Origin: Candidatus Borrarchaeum weybense
GTDB taxonomy: Archaea; Asgardarchaeota; Sifarchaeia; Borrarchaeales; Borrarchaeaceae
Direction: 5' to 3'
NCBI GenBank assembly: GCA_019057385.1
Contig: JAHQJS010000007.1
Span: 587,685-651,684, forward strand
DNA length: 64,000 nt
Shown here piece after piece: positions 46,245 through 59,661 of the stretch. The notes under the pieces were generated by a model, which did no database searches, was not told where the DNA came from, and worked only from the letters and a program-made list of their open reading frames with translations. Every line of letters begins with the position of its first letter. The stretch's first letter is position 1. The position numbers were made by a program, and so were the translations under genes.

Positions 46245-46421
46245 ATGCCCATTATTCATGTAAACGTCTGGAAAGGTTTCGGAAAGGAAAACGCTAAATT
46301 CGTAATCCAAAAGATAACCAAAGTCTTTGTAGATATGGGCATCCCGGCGAATGCAGTGGAAGTAATCGTGCATGAAATAGAAAAGTCGCATTGGGGCGTT
46401 GGTGGGAAGCCTGCATCAGAA
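46245..46421 (+). pseudogene. 4-oxalocrotonate tautomerase-family gene truncated near its 3' end by an IS fragment
   Basis: MPIIHVNVWKG...HWGVGGKPASE, parallels 48516-48719 until GCATCAGAA. Confidence 0.75.
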
Positions 46422-46990
46422 GTTGAGTCGCTATCACTATCGCAGCCAGAACTGGTATAAAACGCTGCGCAAATTGGAGAAAGCCTATGTTAAGGTGACC
46501 AATATCAAGCAGGACGTTAAGAACAAACTGGTCCATTACCTCCACACCAGGTATGGGGTAGTCTGTTACCAGGATGAGCGTGTCAAGGCCTGGCAACGCC
46601 TCTGGGGAAGTAAAATCTTATCCACGGCCATCGGAGGGATCATACGCACACTTAAGGAAAAGATACATACTCCGATCCAAGTCGATAAGTGGTTTCCTTC
46701 CACCAAGACCTGTTCGCGTTGTGGGAATATCCGTGACGTAAGATTAGATGAGCGAATCTATGTCTGTCCAGTCTGTGGGTTGGTGATGGACCGAGATCAT
46801 AATTCAAGTGTTAACCTAGAGAACGAAGGGTTAACACAAGTGGTACCTACAGGACGTAGGGATGTTAAGCCTGTGGAGACTGAATCCTCTACTGTGGCAT
46901 CGTTGGAATACTTAAACCATATTCCCTATGTGACAGCAAGTTCGGTCGGCGAAGCAGGAAGCCTCACCGCTTCAGCGTGAGGTAGTTCAC
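46411..46990 (+). mobile_element. tnpB: IS200/IS605-family remnant: 3' half of tnpB plus right end
   Basis: YQDE, FPSTKTCSRCG, CPVCG, DRDHNSSVN; terminal hairpin CCTCACCGC-TTCA-GCGTGAGG followed by TAGTTCAC. Confidence 0.85.
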
Positions 46991-47592
46991 TAAAATTCTG
47001 GAATCTTCAGGGCATATGTGATTAATTATTGTCTCTTTTTTCGATTTCTTTTATGCAACATTTTTTAAGTTCTTTAGCATAATAGATTTCCTTTATGAAG
47101 AGAGAAACGGATGGAATTCTTCCGATTAGTTCAATCGTATAAACATAAGTCTGATTAGTACATAAAGCTTAATACGATTGGATATTCCTATAAGTTGTGG
47201 GGTCTTCTTGCGGAGACATGATAAAAAAGTAGTCCAAAATGCAAAACTCTACTTCACAGACTTGATGGCCGAAGTTCGTTCAAGAAAAGCCGTGATTGAA
47301 CTTCGAGAAGATAGAATTCGCGATTAGATAACTCCAAAATAATTTATTGAAATGAAGAGGAAAATGATTTCTTGAATTTTTAAGAGAGAGAAATGCAGTA
47401 GCATCAGTTCGCGTACATTTTTTGACATATTTTTAGTTCAATAACTTTCTTTCACGCTGCTCTCGTTTAGCATCAAATAATGACATAAAGACAAAATTAA
47501 AATTAAAGATCTCAAGTTTATCGCTTCTTCACCATCAATAAAAGGAAATGTTAATATTCTTAATCGTGAAGGTAATATTGTGGGTGAAATTA

Positions 47593-48825: not shown

Positions 48826-49308
48826 GTGGGTAAAACTTTGAAATGGGCTGATGAAGAAAAATTTCTCGAAGAACAACTCGAAATTCTAGTCAGGTTGCGA
48901 AACCAATTTGGCGAAGATGTCATAGAAATTGCGCGACGCGCGCGTCTCGCCGTCCACCAGAAGCGAATGCGAGAATTATCGACACAGAATCCACCTAAAC
49001 ACCCTGCTGAAGTATTTGGTCACTCAGCGTACAGCGTCTCAGCTGCTGATCCAGGTACCATGGAGTATGACGTGTTAGAAGATTCAGAGAGCCGTTTTGC
49101 TGTCAAAATCAAGCGTTGTCGCTATGCTGACTTTTATCGAGGTCATGGTCATCCAGAGATAGGCTATGCGTTACATTGCTCTCTAGATTTTGGCGAAGCT
49201 AAGGCCTTCTGGCCAGAAATCACATTCACACGTACTAAAACGTTAATGCAAGGTGATGATCACTGTAATCATTGTTATGAATTAGTTAAACAGAATGACG
49301 GTATTTAA
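48826..49308 (+). CDS. L-2-amino-thiazoline-4-carboxylate hydrolase family protein
   Basis: RCRYADFY...HCSLD...TRTKTLMQGDDHCNH. Confidence 0.8.
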   Translation: MGKTLKWADEEKFLEEQLEILVRLRNQFGEDVIEIARRARLAVHQKRMRELSTQNPPKHPAEVFGHSAYSVSAADPGTMEYDVLEDSESRFAVKIKRCRYADFYRGHGHPEIGYALHCSLDFGEAKAFWPEITFTRTKTLMQGDDHCNHCYELVKQNDGI

Positions 49309-49843: not shown

Positions 49844-50491
49844 TCAACTATTATCAAAATACTTTAAATCATTTCGCCCTAGAGCGCGAAGCATTACGTC
49901 CGGCTGAACGTAATATCGGTCTCCAAATATTTTATCACCGTAAATAGCGAGTGGATGTGTTTGAAGAATACCTACAAGTATGCCTTCTGTAAACTTGTTT
50001 TCGTCATATTGGCATATAGCTAGTACGCGATTTCCCGGGAAAAAGTAATTAAGTTTTGCCTCGTATTCTACGAGTAGTTCAATGTTTTCCCGCGATTTTA
50101 GTGCCCATGTCATCTCCCCGGTAACTCGTAGAGCATCGTAGCCGTCCGCTAGTGCTGTATCGAGATGTGCCTTGATTAAGGCAATCATTACATCTGGATC
50201 AAATGCGTCCTCTTTTGTATAGGTATCTTCACTGGTAGTAAACACTAATTGTCCTTTCTCGATCACCAAATCGACATCGACACTAATATTCTTAAGTTGG
50301 GTTTGTATTTCTTCGACACCACTTTCATCGATTATGTAGATGCACTTATGGTTGCATTCCAGCCCTTCTTTAATAAAGGGTATGACAAGGGCAAATTGTT
50401 GCTCTTTAGTTTCATAAATGTAACAGATATGAACCCCCAGTTGGATTTTTTGTCGGAGGGTATCATAAAGCGGAAATTTGTCTATCTTCAT
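49844..50491 (-). CDS. stand-alone MEDS sensory domain protein
   Basis: HICYIYE, FIKEGL, LRVTGEMTW, EYEAKLN, AICQYD, THP. Confidence 0.85.
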   Translation of the reverse strand: MKIDKFPLYDTLRQKIQLGVHICYIYETKEQQFALVIPFIKEGLECNHKCIYIIDESGVEEIQTQLKNISVDVDLVIEKGQLVFTTSEDTYTKEDAFDPDVMIALIKAHLDTALADGYDALRVTGEMTWALKSRENIELLVEYEAKLNYFFPGNRVLAICQYDENKFTEGILVGILQTHPLAIYGDKIFGDRYYVQPDVMLRALGRNDLKYFDNS

Positions 50492-50773: not shown

Positions 50774-51379
50774 TCACAGTTTTCTCAGGAAATATTCGTG
50801 GAACCGGGTATCAGTTGTTAGTTCTGGGTGGAAAACCGTACCAATCATATCACCTTTTTGAACTGCGGCAATTATTGTACCCAGTTTTCCAAGAACCTCA
50901 ACATCGGGACCCACCTCTAGAATAGTAGGCGCTCGTATGAATATAACCTGAAATGGTTCACGACCCAAGCAGGGGATTTCTAAATTAGCGCCAAAGGATT
51001 CCTTCTGTCTTCCAAAGGAGTTTCTTTCAACTGTAATATCCATCAAATCAAGAGTAGTAGCGTCAATTGTGTCCACAACACGATCATAAACTTTTCGGGC
51101 CATCATTATAAGCCCTGCACATGTTCCAAATATGGGCATACCCTGTTCTACTCGAACTTTGATTGCTTGCAAGGTTTTATGAAAAGTTGCCAGTTTTCCG
51201 ATAGTTGTACTCTCTCCGCCTGGGATAATAAGCCCATCAATGCATTTCACATCTTCAACCGTCTTAACCCATGTGAGTTTGCAGTTAAGCCCTATTCGTT
51301 TTGAAGCACGTTTGGTCATGAAAACATGTTCTTCGATAGCACCTTGGAAACCAAGGATGCCAATAGATAACCTATTCAT
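50774..51379 (-). CDS. pdxT: pyridoxal 5'-phosphate synthase glutaminase subunit
   Basis: [35 protein letters not shown]; ATGA overlap with pdxS. Confidence 0.95.
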
Positions 51380-52341
51380 GTTGCCCCACGTTCCTGCATC
51401 CAAACTTTCAGGTGCTGGCTTTCCAATCCAACCATGGATTTCTTTTCATCTATCATTTTTTGAGCCTCAGCAACAGTAGATGGATCGTCAAAGAAGGTCG
51501 TTGCCAGAACGATTGCTTCCGCTCTGCTTGATGGATCTTCCGATTTGAAAATGCCCGAACCAACGAAAATGCCGTCACATCCTAGATTGATCATTAGCGC
51601 GGCATCCGCCGGAGTTGCTATGCCTCCAGCGGCAAAATTCACAACTGGCAGTCTGCCCAATCGCCCAGTCTCAGCTACTAGCTCATAGCAGGCCTTTAGA
51701 TCCCGAGCCATTCGGATCAGTTCCTGATGGTCTTCAGACTCATAACTTGCTTTTATTGCTCTTATTTCGTTATTGACGAGTCTAAGATGCTTTACTGCTT
51801 CTGCTACGTCACCTGTACCTGGTTCTCCCTTAGTTCTTATCATTGCTGCACCTTCTTCAACCCGTCGCAGCGCTTCTCCGAGGCTTCTGGCGCCATCGAC
51901 GAAGGGAGTTGTAAAGTCCCACTTCCAGATGTGACGGGTCTCATCAGCAGGTGTCAAAACCTCAGATTCGTCAATCATGTCGATGCCAACAGTTTCTAGA
52001 ATCTTTGCTTCACCTGAATGCCCAATTCGACATTTAGCCATAACAGGAATGGTTACATGATCTAATATCTCTTCGATCGCCTTAAGACTAGCAGTTCGTG
52101 CAATTCCGCCAGTTTTTCGGACATCATATGGAAGCCGATCCAAGACCATAACCGCAACTGCACCAGCATCTTCCGCGATCTGCGCTTGTTCCACATTCGT
52201 GACATCCATGATGACACCATGCTTCAACATACAGGCAAAACCACGTTTTACTAAGGTCGTACCACGAATAATTTCAAATTCCTCAAAAGTCTCACATCGT
52301 ATTCCCAATTGCTCGGAAACTGTGCTAACAAACGAGATCAT
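51376..52341 (-). CDS. pdxS: pyridoxal 5'-phosphate synthase lyase subunit
   Basis: [53 protein letters not shown]. Confidence 0.97.
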
Positions 52342-52393
52342 ATTAACCCCGATTAAGAGGACTTGAAGAAGATATATATAAGTTAACCTCTAA

Positions 52394-52413
52394 ATATAGG
52401 ATAGAACCTATAT
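52394..52413. promoter_or_regulatory. palindromic candidate operator between pdxS and the ThrC-PadR gene
   Basis: ATATAGG-ATAGAA-CCTATAT (7-6-7 inverted repeat). Confidence 0.55.
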
Positions 52414-52436
52414 ATAGATTAAAGGAAGGCGCGCCC

Positions 52437-53930
52437 ATGGTCCTAGAAAGCATGCTCAAGTGCACCCGCTGTGGAGAAAACTACAAGCAAGATAGATCCC
52501 TTCAACTATGTCAAAAATGCAAGGGCATATTGTACGTTAACTACGATTACGATTCAATTAGAAAAAAACTTACTCCACAGGACCTTCAGAAGCGTGGCCT
52601 AGGCATCTGGAAATATTCAGAAATCCTCCCCATCACAAGCCGATCAAACATAGTTTCTCTCGGAGAAGGAGGCACTTTTCTCCATAGGTGCGAAAGATTA
52701 GGCAAAAAGCTTGGCCTAACCAATCTCTTCATTAAAAATGAAACCACAAATCCTACGGGCTCCTTCATTGATCGAGGCACTGCAGTTGCGGTTTCCAAAG
52801 CTAAAGAATTTGGCGTTCGTGCCTTAGTCTGTGGCGTCACGGGCAACCTAGGTGCTTCTCTTGCAGCCTATGCCGCCAAAGCCGCGATGCGCTGTCTCGT
52901 TTATCTGTCAGGACCTATTGATCAAGGCAAACTTTATCAAATGATTGCCTTTGGAGCAACCATTAGACCTACCAAGACATCTGAAGAAGCCTTAGCAAAA
53001 GCACAAAGCATAGGGTCAAACACAATGACGGTCACACCAGCAGATCCTCTCTTTCTTGAAGGAGAAAAAACAACAGGTTTTGAAATCTGTGAACAGCTCG
53101 AATGGAAAGCACCAGATCGAATTATTGTGCCGATGGGCAATGGTGGACATCTCTCTATGATTTGGAAGGGACTTAAAGAGTTTGTCTCTTTGGGAATCCT
53201 AGAAGACCTCTCTACGACCATGATCGGTGTACAAGCTGCTGGATGTGCTCCAATAGTGCAGGCCTTTCAGAAGGGGTCAATGGAGGTATCACCATCCGAC
53301 AAAATCAACACGATAGTCAGAGATATATGCTTTAAAAATCCCTTGATGGGCGATTTAGCAGTCAAAACACTGCAAGAGTCAGAAGGGACTGCCTTGGCGG
53401 TTACTGACGAACAAATGCTGGATGCTGCACACCTTCTTGCTAAAACAGAAGGAATCTTCGCGGAACTTGCTGCCTCTTCAACCATTGCCTGTGCCAAACG
53501 ACTGGTGGAGCTGGGAAAAATTGATCCTAGCGACGTCGTTGTTTGTGTAATTACAGGAATGGGACTCAAGGATCCAATTGCCATGCAAAGATTCGTCAAG
53601 CGGGCCAAAAATTTAAAAGGATTAATCCATCCAAGTGCAGAAAGAACCTTCTCAACAAAGATAGGTGAAACAAAACAATTAATACTTGAAATCTTATCAC
53701 AGAGCGAACAATATGGCTATTTTATCTGGCGAGAACTCACCCAAAAATTTGATATCAAAATCAAAATCCCAACGGTATATCAGCATTTGGCAGATTTGGA
53801 AAAACTCGTTCTGATTAGACATACAAGAATAGCAACGATTTTTGGGAAGCCGGAAAGAAAGTATTATACTATCACAGATCGAGGTAAGGCTATGTTAAAT
53901 GCACTAAAGCAAATGAATGCGTCGATGTAG
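52437..53930 (+). CDS. threonine-synthase-like (fold type II PLP) domain lacking the catalytic Lys, fused to C-terminal PadR-type wHTH
   Basis: SLGEGGT, NPTGSF-I-DRG (K replaced by I), EGEKT, VPMGNGG, ITGMGLKD; tail YGYFIWREL...PTVYQHLADLEK...RKYYTITDRG. Confidence 0.8.
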   Translation: MVLESMLKCTRCGENYKQDRSLQLCQKCKGILYVNYDYDSIRKKLTPQDLQKRGLGIWKYSEILPITSRSNIVSLGEGGTFLHRCERLGKKLGLTNLFIKNETTNPTGSFIDRGTAVAVSKAKEFGVRALVCGVTGNLGASLAAYAAKAAMRCLVYLSGPIDQGKLYQMIAFGATIRPTKTSEEALAKAQSIGSNTMTVTPADPLFLEGEKTTGFEICEQLEWKAPDRIIVPMGNGGHLSMIWKGLKEFVSLGILEDLSTTMIGVQAAGCAPIVQAFQKGSMEVSPSDKINTIVRDICFKNPLMGDLAVKTLQESEGTALAVTDEQMLDAAHLLAKTEGIFAELAASSTIACAKRLVELGKIDPSDVVVCVITGMGLKDPIAMQRFVKRAKNLKGLIHPSAERTFSTKIGETKQLILEILSQSEQYGYFIWRELTQKFDIKIKIPTVYQHLADLEKLVLIRHTRIATIFGKPERKYYTITDRGKAMLNALKQMNASM

Positions 53931-54097: not shown

Positions 54098-54955
54098 CTA
54101 AGATATAACTTCTAAACTCATATTAAGTGATGTGTAGGAATGCGTAAGTACACCCATCGAAATTATGTCAACCCCAGTTTCAGCATATTCATCGAGATTT
54201 TCTAGCGTTATTCCTCCTGAAACTTCCAAAATGACATTCTTCCGAAATCCTTTCTTAATTAATAATTCAATAGCTTGCTTTACTTCCGAAACACTCATGT
54301 TATCTAGCATGACTATGTCGGCCCCAGCTTCAACGATCTTTACGATATCAGCAGGTGTAGTAATTTCAACCTCTATTTTCTTCGAAAAACTGGTCTTTTG
54401 TTTTGCAAGTCTAACAGCCTGTTCAACATCCCCAACCAAAGCAATATGATTGTCCTTAATGAGTATCAGATCATCCAGTCTGAACCGATGCGTATCACCG
54501 CCACCAATCTCAACAGCTTTCTTTTCAAAATAACTAAACCCAGGCGTTGTTTTTCTTGTAGAGGCAATTCTAATAGAGTTGTTCAATTTCCTTGCGATGT
54601 TAAGTGCCAAAGAAGTTAATGTAGCTATTCCACTCATCCTCATTAAGAAATTTAACAAGGTACGCTCACAGTTTAGAATAGATTGTGCTTGTCCTATAAA
54701 TGCTAGTAACGTATCTCCCCGGCCAATTTGTTCACCATCTTGTCGAATATAAAGAGGGTGTAAATCAAAGAGTTCTAAGATAACTTTTGCAATTTTGGCA
54801 CCGGCAAAGATGCCTTCCTCTTTTGTGGATACTTTCGCCTCCACTACCATATTTTCATTAATCAATGAGTTAGTGGTGATATCACCATAACCTAGATCAC
54901 TTTTCATTATCTCTTTTATGAAATCTCTCGTGAGAACTTCGTCCATCAAATGCAT
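54098..54955 (-). CDS. nadC: nicotinate-nucleotide pyrophosphorylase (carboxylating)
   Basis: GDITT, STRKTTPG, HRFRL, LIKDNH, IEVE, MLDN, EVSGGI. Confidence 0.96.
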   Translation of the reverse strand: MHLMDEVLTRDFIKEIMKSDLGYGDITTNSLINENMVVEAKVSTKEEGIFAGAKIAKVILELFDLHPLYIRQDGEQIGRGDTLLAFIGQAQSILNCERTLLNFLMRMSGIATLTSLALNIARKLNNSIRIASTRKTTPGFSYFEKKAVEIGGGDTHRFRLDDLILIKDNHIALVGDVEQAVRLAKQKTSFSKKIEVEITTPADIVKIVEAGADIVMLDNMSVSEVKQAIELLIKKGFRKNVILEVSGGITLENLDEYAETGVDIISMGVLTHSYTSLNMSLEVIS

Positions 54956-55032
54956 CTCCCTAATAGGCGCATTAAAAATTCGTTAAAAATTGAAAGGCCT
55001 TTAAATGTATTAAAGGCAAAAGTAAATTGCCA

Positions 55033-55950
55033 TTATGAAAGTTGGACCATTTTTTTGATTCCACTTCTAGCCCTTTCTGCAATTTCATCAGGAACCATAC
55101 AAACATAATTCTTCTTTACGAGCACATCTCTTATCTTTTCAAGCGTGATTTTTTTCATATTATGACAGATAGCATCATTGAGAGCTGGAATGAAGGTTTT
55201 TCCTGGAATTTCTCGTCTCATTCGTTCGACTAGGCCTATCTCCGTCCCTACGATGATAACATCAGACGATGTCTTTTTACTCCATTCGAGCATTTGTTGC
55301 GTGCTTCCTACATGATCTGCTATTTTTTGCACTTCTGGATCGCATTCGGGATGAACAACAAGTTCAGCATTAGGATATTTGGTTTTTAGGGAATGAAGTG
55401 TTGTAGGATCAAACATTTTATGGACATAACAGTATCCATGCTCAGGAATAGGAATAAGTTCAAGTCCAGAATCCACTTGACGAGCAACATGCCATCCAAG
55501 ATTCCAATCTGGACCAAAAACTACCTTATCAGTTCCAAGCCTTCTTACAATCGTATCTGCATTCGAAGAAGTGCACATCACATCAGCTTCAGCCTTAGCT
55601 TCAGCGAGTGTATTCACGTACAAGACCACCGGAACTCCTGGATGTTTCCGCTTTGCTTCGATTACTGTGTTCTTCGGGCATTGAGCAGCCATAGGACACC
55701 TCGAAGAGGGATCCGGAATTAATACCATCTTATCTGGACTTAAGATAGCTGCTGATTCTACCATAAAATCAACTCCACAAAATACAATAATATCTGCATC
55801 TGTTTCACTTTGAGCTTTTCTGCACAAGGCTAAAGAATCCCCTAAGTAATCCGCTACTTCTTGGACTTCTGGCCTTTGATAATTATGCACTAACAGAATT
55901 GCATTTTCTTTCTCTTTTAATTTTAGAATCTCTTCTTGAAGTTGTTTCAT
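55033..55950 (-). CDS. nadA: quinolinate synthase
   Basis: HNYQ, GDSL, FCGVDFM, CPMA, YVNT, CTSSNA, HPEC, C..MK; ATG 55950 has AGGTGA RBS. Confidence 0.96.
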   Translation of the reverse strand: MKQLQEEILKLKEKENAILLVHNYQRPEVQEVADYLGDSLALCRKAQSETDADIIVFCGVDFMVESAAILSPDKMVLIPDPSSRCPMAAQCPKNTVIEAKRKHPGVPVVLYVNTLAEAKAEADVMCTSSNADTIVRRLGTDKVVFGPDWNLGWHVARQVDSGLELIPIPEHGYCYVHKMFDPTTLHSLKTKYPNAELVVHPECDPEVQKIADHVGSTQQMLEWSKKTSSDVIIVGTEIGLVERMRREIPGKTFIPALNDAICHNMKKITLEKIRDVLVKKNYVCMVPDEIAERARSGIKKMVQLS

Positions 55951-55960
55951 AAATTCACCT

Positions 55961-56791
55961 CTATGCGCCAATACAAACATGTGTGGAGATATTTTTCAGA
56001 GTTCTAACCGCACTCAAAGCTGCAAGATAACTCGTTTTTGGATTCTCAGGACAAGGAATATTCTCAGATCTCGTTATAGCTTCACCAAAATCGCCTTTGA
56101 TATGTATTTCATGTATATTTTCTGCAATTGTCGGATCAGCAATGACCTTGACAATAGTTCTATCAGCACCAATGCCAGCTAAACTTAATATCATTGAAAC
56201 ATTGACAGATTTGGGAAAATTCTTGGCAGCATCTCTTGCAGTACCTTCGTAAAGAGTAATAGGTTCACTAAGTTCATTGAGTGAAATTTTGTTATCGAGA
56301 ACATACTTTGAGGTTTCTAATGTACGAACAGGTTTTCTGGTAATCAAATTAACAGAAGTCAGAGTGCCAATTGCAGCACTTTTAACACCATCAAGACCGA
56401 GTATTGCGCCAGAAGGAATATAGATCTTCCTATGATTCATATTAGCTAATTTTTGAATTTTTGAGAATAACAAATCGTCAGAGAAAGCTCCTACACTCAA
56501 TACCATTAAATCCTTTTTGAAACGAATAACTTCTACAGCATATTCTCTAACAGCCTCTTGTGATGCTGCTTCCACAACAAGAGTGACCTCCGGATCGTGA
56601 ATAAGTTCAGAAAAAGTATTGTATATTTTAAATGGAGTTTTGAGAATTTTAGCGAAATAATTGGCTTTTTCTTGTATTATATCAAAGACACCTACTATGC
56701 GAATACCTTCGCCAGCTGAACCCCTCTCTATAGATTGAGTTATTACTTGTCCAATAGCTCCACATCCAATTATTGCAACATTAAGACTCAT
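55961..56791 (-). CDS. nadX: L-aspartate dehydrogenase
   Basis: IIGCGAIG, VEAASQ, IPSGAILGLD, FPKSVNV, NPKTSYLA; first gene of nad operon. Confidence 0.92.
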   Translation of the reverse strand: MSLNVAIIGCGAIGQVITQSIERGSAGEGIRIVGVFDIIQEKANYFAKILKTPFKIYNTFSELIHDPEVTLVVEAASQEAVREYAVEVIRFKKDLMVLSVGAFSDDLLFSKIQKLANMNHRKIYIPSGAILGLDGVKSAAIGTLTSVNLITRKPVRTLETSKYVLDNKISLNELSEPITLYEGTARDAAKNFPKSVNVSMILSLAGIGADRTIVKVIADPTIAENIHEIHIKGDFGEAITRSENIPCPENPKTSYLAALSAVRTLKNISTHVCIGA

Positions 56792-59492: not shown

Positions 59493-59661
59493 TTAAGGAG
59501 CTCTGTAACTTTCAACCATGAGATATAAGCTTTTTTATAGATTTGTTGGCGAGAAGACCACCCAACAAGTTGGGGGGGATTTTAGCTTTGAAACAGCCTT
59601 ATCTCTTCATTTCTAGAAAAGCTATAATGAATTGAAGGCAGCGGATAACAATCACACTTTC

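Follow-up and report, generated by a model that had tools for sequence, protein, structure and literature searches.

A lysine-less threonine synthase–PadR fusion divergent from pdxST as a candidate vitamin B6-responsive regulator in Asgard archaea

A 64,000-nucleotide stretch of the Candidatus Borrarchaeum weybense genome (contig JAHQJS010000007.1 of assembly GCA_019057385.1; hereafter the window) encodes a 497-amino-acid open reading frame (ORF) that joins a threonine synthase (ThrC)-like domain to a C-terminal PadR-type winged helix-turn-helix (wHTH). The gene lies head-to-head with pdxS-pdxT (pdxST), which encode the two subunits of pyridoxal 5'-phosphate (PLP) synthase. We propose that the fusion is probably a transcription factor in which a ThrC-derived PLP fold acts as a vitamin B6 sensor and which would control either pdxST or a B6 importer. 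The window corresponds to C7:587685-651684 of a 4.18-Mb genome in 8 contigs, and the positions of all features are collected in Table 1.

Both halves of the protein are readily recognized. Pfam assigns residues 73-374 to PALP (PF00291; E 2.4e-65) and residues 416-488 to PadR (PF03551; E 1.8e-12, 47.5 bits against a gathering cut-off of 27). Sequence matches to threonine synthases in the PDB reach E 7.7e-61, and threonine synthases are also the best structural matches of an AlphaFold2 (AF2) model in Foldseek, with TMt scores of 0.81-0.86 at 34-38% identity. With a mean predicted local distance difference test (pLDDT) score of 84, the model gives confident predictions of both the ThrC domain and the wHTH, which are separated by a disordered linker (residues 375-408). 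Three helices (residues 411-420, 427-436 and 444-456), a beta-hairpin (460-466 and 474-479) and a C-terminal helix (481-495), modelled at pLDDT 80-92, give the wHTH a PadR fold, in which Y428, Y448, H450, R474 and Y477 are invariant among fusions. At the opposite end of the protein, the zinc-ribbon cysteines C9, C12, C25 and C28 are nearly invariant in fusions, as they are in unfused archaeal ThrC.

The ThrC-like domain has lost the lysine of its Schiff-base motif. NPTGSFKDRG of ThrC reads NPTGSFIDRG here, with Ile111 opposite the lysine in alignments to 2zsj and 6cgq, and the ASTGN motif is replaced by GVTGN (residues 133-137). An earlier model-generated interpretation of this DNA (the sequence-only reading) had called both substitutions, and the ATT codon and structure-based alignments agree with it; it was also right about a retained PMGNGG loop, found as PMGNGGH at residues 232-238, and about the PadR-like wHTH, for which PF03551 exceeds its cut-off and PadR structures in the PDB match. 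It had further asked whether lysine loss extends to homologues. With a threshold of E <= 1e-20, a search of 5.8 billion proteins returned 6,873 homologues, some of which may not be fusions, and among the best 120 of these position 111 is isoleucine in 93, leucine in 12, valine in 9, methionine in 3, threonine in 2 and serine in 1, and lysine in none. Column-by-column alignment likewise found lysine missing from all 30 full-length members of the hydrophobic clade, the group of fusions that includes the window, and present in unfused ThrC (25/25 counted, 19/19 aligned).

Lysine loss is accompanied by a wider remodelling of the pocket. In the hydrophobic clade K111 becomes I, L, M or V, T138 becomes L (27/30), R206 becomes F (24/30), N238 becomes H (22/30) and H375 becomes M, A or S, and F110, D112, R113, N137, G234, G236, G237, T373 and K378 are unchanged. 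The three glycines are conserved in every group, whereas position 238 is asparagine in unfused ThrC and histidine in this clade. The window's fusion carries L138, P201, F206 and H238 in columns that are mostly T, S, R and N in unfused archaeal ThrC. We take these columns to correspond to Thr88, Ser155, Arg160 and Asn188 of Thermus thermophilus ThrC, which presumably bind the phosphate of O-phosphohomoserine, and position 111 to correspond to Lys61, presumably the covalent cofactor anchor. The unchanged residues are, on the same assumption, those that contact the cofactor ring and phosphate in the T. thermophilus structures. Read in this way, the fusion has lost its Schiff-base lysine and the residues at the presumed substrate-phosphate positions, which supports its description as a pseudoenzyme.

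By family similarity alone the protein would pass for an enzyme. It exceeds the curated NCBIfam cut-offs of NF006050 'threonine synthase' (313.7 vs 303) and TIGR00260 (206.7 vs 167.1), in keeping with its structural matches, and every named relative in public sources is labelled threonine synthase; the suspicion that annotation pipelines would mislabel the gene as thrC was well founded. A further model, NF004170 (PRK05638 'threonine synthase', 442 positions), aligns with residues 6-490 at 309.5, below its cut-off of 421. Since the aligned region takes in the wHTH, fusions are already described by a curated model that bears the name 'threonine synthase', although the model probably represents a sister, arginine-type clade (NPTNSFRDRAA) and not that of the window. 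The model scores, together with the identity to solved ThrC enzymes, would fit a functional threonine synthase, or a different PLP-dependent enzyme, to which a C-terminal domain has simply been added. We find this scarcely credible given that the Schiff-base residue is isoleucine here and never lysine in this clade, that other positions conserved in unfused ThrC have changed as well, and that the genomic links described below are to B6 genes and not to threonine genes. The genome also holds a complete separate thrC: its second TIGR00260 match (C4:170402-171343, 241 bits) lies in a 450-amino-acid ORF with GPTCSFKDVG, the separate lysine-containing gene that the sequence-only reading had proposed to look for.

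Sorting of approximately 100 loci from GTDB genomes and assemblies resolved three groups of fusions: the hydrophobic clade (~495 amino acids), the arginine-type (R-type; ~470 amino acids) and seven fusions that keep the lysine (K-type). In a tree of the ThrC domain, the fusions fall on one side of a branch with a Shimodaira–Hasegawa-like approximate likelihood ratio test (SH-aLRT) support of 82. Support is 95 for monophyly of the hydrophobic clade and 100 for its sister clade, which joins the R-type to a K-type embedded in it. PALP and PadR occur together in 120/120 of the best homologues, the named members of which come from metagenome-assembled genomes (MAGs) of Bathyarchaeia, Nitrososphaerales, and Thor-, Odin-, Sif- and Promethearchaeota.

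We then turn from the protein to the DNA between the divergent genes. Coordinates and sequence uphold the layout first proposed for this locus, in which the fusion gene and pdxS-pdxT are separated by 95 bp that hold the palindrome ATATAGG-N6-CCTATAT. Its half-sites lie at 52394-52400 and 52407-52413 on either side of the N6 spacer (52401-52406), and the start of the palindrome and its right half are 43 and 30 nt upstream of the regulator ATG, respectively. The exact pattern ATAKARG-N6-CCTAYAT occurs only once in the 4.18-Mb genome. The palindrome is the core of, and homologous in position to, a 28-nt element common to the upstream regions of the hydrophobic clade, which has the consensus ATATATAAGTTTCAGCCTATATATAGGC and can be approximated as ATATA(A/G)G-N6-C(C/T)TATAT with G/C flanks; the right half most often begins 23 nt upstream of the ATG. 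A weaker operator-like site overlaps the palindrome and includes ATATATATAAG (52372-52382), a TATA-like stretch 31-41 nt upstream of the pdxS ATG and a putative pdxS promoter element.

To score this element we used a 28-nt position weight matrix (PWM) built from relatives and scanned over entire loci (3-13 kb, both strands). With each locus left out in turn, the best match of the whole locus scored at least 15 at 30/35 clade loci and lay directly upstream of the fusion, in the same orientation, at 29/35. No match of at least 15 was found in 57 control loci comprising R-type and K-type fusions and unfused thrC. The window site scores 27.5 (25.2 when left out) vs 17.2 for the best unrelated site of its genome, in which no further regulon members were found, the next matches (<= 17.2) being unlinked to B6 genes. 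Across 29 other clade-carrying genomes (~66 Mb summed), ATATAA-N7-CYTAYATAT gives 22 matches, mostly one per genome and at the regulator gene, vs 1 for the reversed control; an extra site in genome G036, a weak variant located between FdhD and a LAGLIDADG ORF, is probably due to chance. The palindrome is thus conserved, as the sequence-only reading had asked of it, in the form of an element present at 29/35 clade loci and 0/57 controls, and the fusion shares with PadR regulators an inverted repeat near its own gene.

Since the half-sites are TATA-like and sit at promoter distances from both start codons, the element might instead be a bidirectional core promoter of two TATA boxes, with the fusion acting elsewhere or off DNA, perhaps in carrying or storing PLP; non-catalytic PLP-binding proteins such as YggS/COG0325 are known (PMC5320631). 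We give this explanation little credence. An ordinary promoter sequence should turn up at thousands of places in each genome, but the pattern is found one to three times, at the regulator, pdxST, pdxU or a GNAT acetyltransferase gene. Its G/C flanks (GCCTATATATAGGC) and fixed N6 are kept across Asgard-, Bathyarchaeia- and Nitrososphaerota-labelled MAGs, and the PadR domain is itself conserved, down to the invariant residues listed above.

Gene neighbourhoods connect the fusions with vitamin B6. ORF clustering showed that their dominant specific neighbour is a membrane protein of ~170-260 amino acids, present at 53/76 fusion loci vs 0/23 unfused thrC loci and belonging to PF07155 (E 1e-25 to 1e-39). 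Within 2.5 kb of the 35 hydrophobic-clade loci, the range used for all neighbour counts in this clade, its gene is divergent from the fusion at a distance of 50-300 bp in 24 cases (22, plus two with over-extended ORF calls), and in the R-type it follows the fusion on the same strand after 60-80 bp (22/27 loci). The sole PDB relative of the neighbour is chain S of 4hzu (E 2.2e-16), the energy-coupling factor (ECF) S-component HmpT/PdxU2 of Lactobacillus brevis, from which pyridoxamine was extracted as substrate (PMC4860826). PdxU and PdxU2/HmpT, both PF07155, are among only three known prokaryotic B6 transporters (PMC9997740). In the closest relative with genomic context (79% identity), EcfT and two ABC ATPase genes stand on the other side, and we consider the PF07155 protein a probable archaeal B6 importer.

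The synthase genes themselves adjoin the fusion at 4/35 clade loci: divergently at the window, at the metagenomic locus L037 and at L078 in genome G062, and downstream on the same strand at L023 in G012. Adjacency to pdxST, as predicted by the sequence-only reading, therefore stands for the window and these clade loci; as the usual arrangement it gives way to the PdxU/HmpT-type transporter component. A GNAT acetyltransferase also recurs, divergent together with an EamA gene at one clade locus and elsewhere in an operon with the S-component. In G048 the GNAT gene is unlinked to the regulator, yet the operator element precedes it. None of these partners (the PF07155 S-component, pdxST or GNAT-EamA) was found at the 23 unfused thrC loci.

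The distribution of pdxS offers a view of the predicted regulon away from the regulator gene. The window's genome holds a single pdxS, and we read pdxT as co-transcribed with it, its ATG and the pdxS stop overlapping as ATGA. We did not see pdxS in 28/32 other genomes carrying the hydrophobic clade, several of them > 90% complete, absence from a MAG being provisional; pdxJ was not found in any of the 26 of these 28 that were searched. Four carriers do have pdxS, which adjoins the fusion in G012, G062 and G063. In the fourth, G061, pdxS-pdxT lies on a separate contig and an exact operator ends 9 bp before the pdxS start. That genome has only two exact sites, at pdxS and at the regulator gene, and 0 control matches. 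No other single observation argues as strongly for the predicted regulon as this operator at a pdxST unlinked to the regulator gene; with the conserved element, it lends support to the idea that the fusion regulates B6 genes.

Together, these findings suggest how the regulator might work. The sensor domain would bind PLP or another B6 vitamer reversibly and non-covalently, which is likely because the cofactor-contact positions are invariant while the covalent anchor and substrate site are gone. The PadR wHTH, presumably as a dimer in line with both parent families, would recognize the palindrome ATATA(A/G)G-N6-C(C/T)TATAT in the 95-bp spacer, where the operator overlaps TATA-like elements of both divergent promoters. 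Binding would set transcription of pdxS-pdxT, and with it de novo PLP synthesis, as well as transcription of the regulator's own gene, according to the B6 supply. Its most likely mode is repression by exclusion of TATA-binding protein and transcription factor B (TBP/TFB) when B6 is plentiful. Repression is the simplest model because the half-sites overlap the TATA-like elements of both promoters; activation is also possible, because the main palindrome of the window lies upstream of the putative pdxS TATA element. Where relatives have no pdxS, this regulator and its operator would instead govern the PdxU/HmpT-type ECF B6 importer. The domain composition, the lost residues, the conserved and genome-specific operator element and the gene linkage are observed; binding to DNA, the nature of the ligand and the direction of control are predictions from sequence comparison.

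A related possibility concerns the ligand. The fusion could control the same genes yet sense an amino acid, O-phosphohomoserine or, as a gauge of cofactor demand, an adduct of PLP with an amino acid. The fold does descend from an amino-acid-metabolising enzyme, the pocket is remodelled at L138, F206 and H238, and the regulon takes in a GNAT acetyltransferase and an EamA exporter, neither of which is a classical B6 gene. We nevertheless judge this version unlikely, since the lost residues are those presumed to hold the phosphate of O-phosphohomoserine, the invariant part is the cofactor-phosphate loop with the ring contacts, and the two main types of target, a B6 synthase and a B6-family importer, have only the vitamin in common.

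Several points weigh against the B6 regulator proposed here. Loss of the lysine could also mean that cofactor binding itself was lost, and the presumed roles of the pocket residues are those of T. thermophilus ThrC. The seven K-type fusions, all from Bathyarchaeia (L070, L076, L077, L095, L107, L108 and L117), retain the lysine. B6 as the substrate of the archaeal S-component is suggested by family membership, the protein falling in no NCBIfam equivalog. Part of the conservation of the DNA element could reflect promoter signals, because its half-sites are TATA-like, and no convincing motif common to the upstream regions of R-type and K-type fusions was found. Lastly, only 11/41 sampled genomes of the phylum have pdxS (it is missing in 30). 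Because the gene is uncommon across this sample, carriers of the regulator are not distinctive in lacking it.

The proposed regulator invites comparison with PdxR/MocR of Bacteria, which likewise fuses a DNA-binding wHTH to a domain derived from a PLP enzyme. PdxR/MocR regulons comprise pdxST and/or pdxU, often divergent and with autoregulation, and MocR has been reported absent from Archaea (PMC5320631). The two architectures are not homologous: PdxR/MocR has an N-terminal GntR wHTH and a fold-type I aminotransferase-like domain that binds PLP, whereas the fusion has a C-terminal PadR wHTH, its sole DNA-binding domain, and a fold-type II PALP/ThrC domain without the PLP-binding lysine. What the two share is a B6 regulon, seen here as linkage to, and a common operator with, pdxST and PF07155 genes, which speaks for PdxR-like working and not for membership. 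We regard the fusion as a predicted functional analogue of PdxR that lies outside MocR by structure.

Set against its two parent families, the fusion shows clear homology to ThrC (TIGR00260/NF006050; PDB 2zsj, 6cgq and 1uim; E ~1e-60, TMt 0.8-0.86) and has the N-terminal zinc ribbon in common with archaeal ThrC, from which it differs by the K->I, T->L, R->F and N->H replacements, a ~35-amino-acid linker and the PadR domain. With PadR regulators (PF03551; PDB 4esb, 4esf and 5dym) it shares a winged helix with C-terminal helix, a palindrome by its own gene and, as predicted here, control by a small molecule. Classical PadR proteins have 110-180 amino acids and sense their ligand within or between wHTH dimers, whereas the fusion adds an N-terminal enzyme-derived domain of 400 amino acids.

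Archaea use enzyme-like domains joined to DNA-binding domains to control genes of vitamin synthesis and uptake, as in ThiR for thiamine and RbkR for riboflavin. The logic is alike, but fold, vitamin and DNA-binding family all differ, and no sequence relationship is known. The fusion would belong with these enzyme-derived vitamin-sensing regulators. We know of no described archaeal regulator of vitamin B6, and found no prior description of a ThrC-PadR regulator in the literature covered, which does not extend to subscription journals.

If correct, the proposal would amount to an independent invention of the PdxR solution, assembled from another PLP fold and another type of DNA-binding domain. 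Many public records named 'threonine synthase' would need correcting, and such names can mislead predictions of amino-acid pathways in Asgard, Bathyarchaeia and Nitrososphaerota genomes. The fusion would also provide a natural case in which removal of a covalent cofactor anchor turned an enzyme into a sensor, of interest for pseudoenzyme biology and biosensor design. The scarcity of synthesis genes has a bearing of its own. Besides the gaps in pdxS, pdxJ was found in 0/28 genomes searched in the phylum sample (relatives G001-G040). B6 auxotrophy may accordingly be widespread among these archaea, and most sampled Asgard genomes appear dependent on external B6, which is relevant to their cultivation.

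A broader version of the proposal, which we offer tentatively and hold to be possible rather than probable, is that the entire ThrC-PadR superfamily (Lys-less, Arg-type and Lys-retaining) is the missing archaeal regulator of B6 homeostasis and senses free PLP reversibly owing to removal of its covalent anchor. It would then have thousands of members, in Asgard-, Bathyarchaeia- and Nitrososphaerota-labelled MAGs among others. Its regulons would expose parts of an archaeal B6 salvage system, namely a PdxU-type importer, an AIR-synthase-like kinase, an HD phosphatase and GNAT, and would point to widespread Asgard B6 auxotrophy. Upstream regions of the R-type gene and of pdxS showed no convincing common motif in G011 and G021.

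Other members of the superfamily show features of their own. The K-type fusions also lack the equivalents of Arg206 and Thr138, and their divergent neighbour encodes an HD-domain phosphohydrolase; they could be sensors that bind PLP covalently or enzymes of another kind. Thirteen R-type loci (for example L105:8005-9009, L087 and L101) form an operon of the fusion, the PF07155 S-component and an AIR-synthase-related protein of ~335 amino acids. The latter resembles ThiL, HypE and SelD, scores below every NCBIfam cut-off and could be an unrecognised vitamin-salvage kinase. G048 holds two paralogous Lys-less fusions, L146 and L162, with an operator at each and one of them divergent from a PF07155 gene. 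Archaeal-type fusions also occur in two MAGs with bacterial labels, Limnocylindrales and 'bacterium isolate clean1925' (L119, DATHCJ010000024.1; L064, DAIDAO010000030.1), and may reflect mis-binning or transfer; L119 is an R-type fusion paired with pdxST.

Table 1 Features of the regulator locus and related predictions. Positions are those of the window unless a locus is named.
Feature	Position	Strand	Basis
pdxT (glutaminase subunit)	50774..51403, likely start ATG at 51379	-	Pfam SNO 3.5e-50
pdxS (PLP synthase subunit), predicted target	51376..52341	-	Pfam SOR_SNZ 2e-97
Divergent promoter/operator region, 95 bp, between pdxS and regulator gene	52342..52436	.	Sequence
Second, weaker overlapping operator-like site	52372..52401	.	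PWM 19.5 at C7:640058 (window 52374-52401)
Palindrome ATATAGG-N6-CCTATAT, predicted operator	52394..52413	.	Unique exact match; PWM 27.5; position as in relatives
ThrC-like/PadR fusion gene, predicted B6-responsive transcription factor	52437..53930	+	ORF; Pfam PALP + PadR; AF2 model; ThrC fold match
N-terminal CxxC...CxxC zinc ribbon (C9, C12, C25, C28)	52461..52520	+	Cys conservation
Fold-type II PLP (ThrC-type) domain, residues 73-374, predicted sensor	52653..53558	+	PF00291; PDB ThrC matches
Ile111 codon ATT, Schiff-base lysine position	52767..52769	+	Alignment to 2zsj and 6cgq
PMGNGGH, retained cofactor-phosphate loop, residues 232-238	53130..53150	+	Sequence; last residue His vs Asn in ThrC
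Flexible linker, residues 375-408	53559..53660	+	pLDDT < 50
PadR-type wHTH, residues 416-488	53682..53900	+	PF03551; PDB PadR 4esb, 4esf; AF2 model
GNAT acetyltransferase of the predicted regulon	L161:1575-2126; L039:5200-5913; L041:5302-5904		Element and gene linkage

Directly downstream of the regulator, at 54098-56791 on the minus strand, lies a de novo nicotinamide adenine dinucleotide (NAD) cluster of quinolinate phosphoribosyltransferase, NadA and aspartate dehydrogenase, which forms a cofactor-biosynthesis block with pdxST. No DNA match to the window between 50.7 and 56.9 kb was found in four same-genus genomes, nor a clean junction, the assemblies being fragmented and a multi-copy repeat dominating the matches; this is compatible with a cassette gained or lost as a unit. 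One same-genus genome, G004 (100% complete), showed neither the fusion nor pdxS. A repeat of ~580 bp at 46407-46991 recurs many times, at 66-87% identity, in the same-genus genomes, and sub-repeats of ~37 nt near 46844-46880, 47193-47229 and 59533-59578 are multi-copy there as well; together they are probably a mobile or miniature element. Beyond pdxT, the window encodes a MEDS-domain protein (PF14417, 4.6e-51) at 49844-50491 on the minus strand and an ATC-hydrolase-like gene at 48826-49308.

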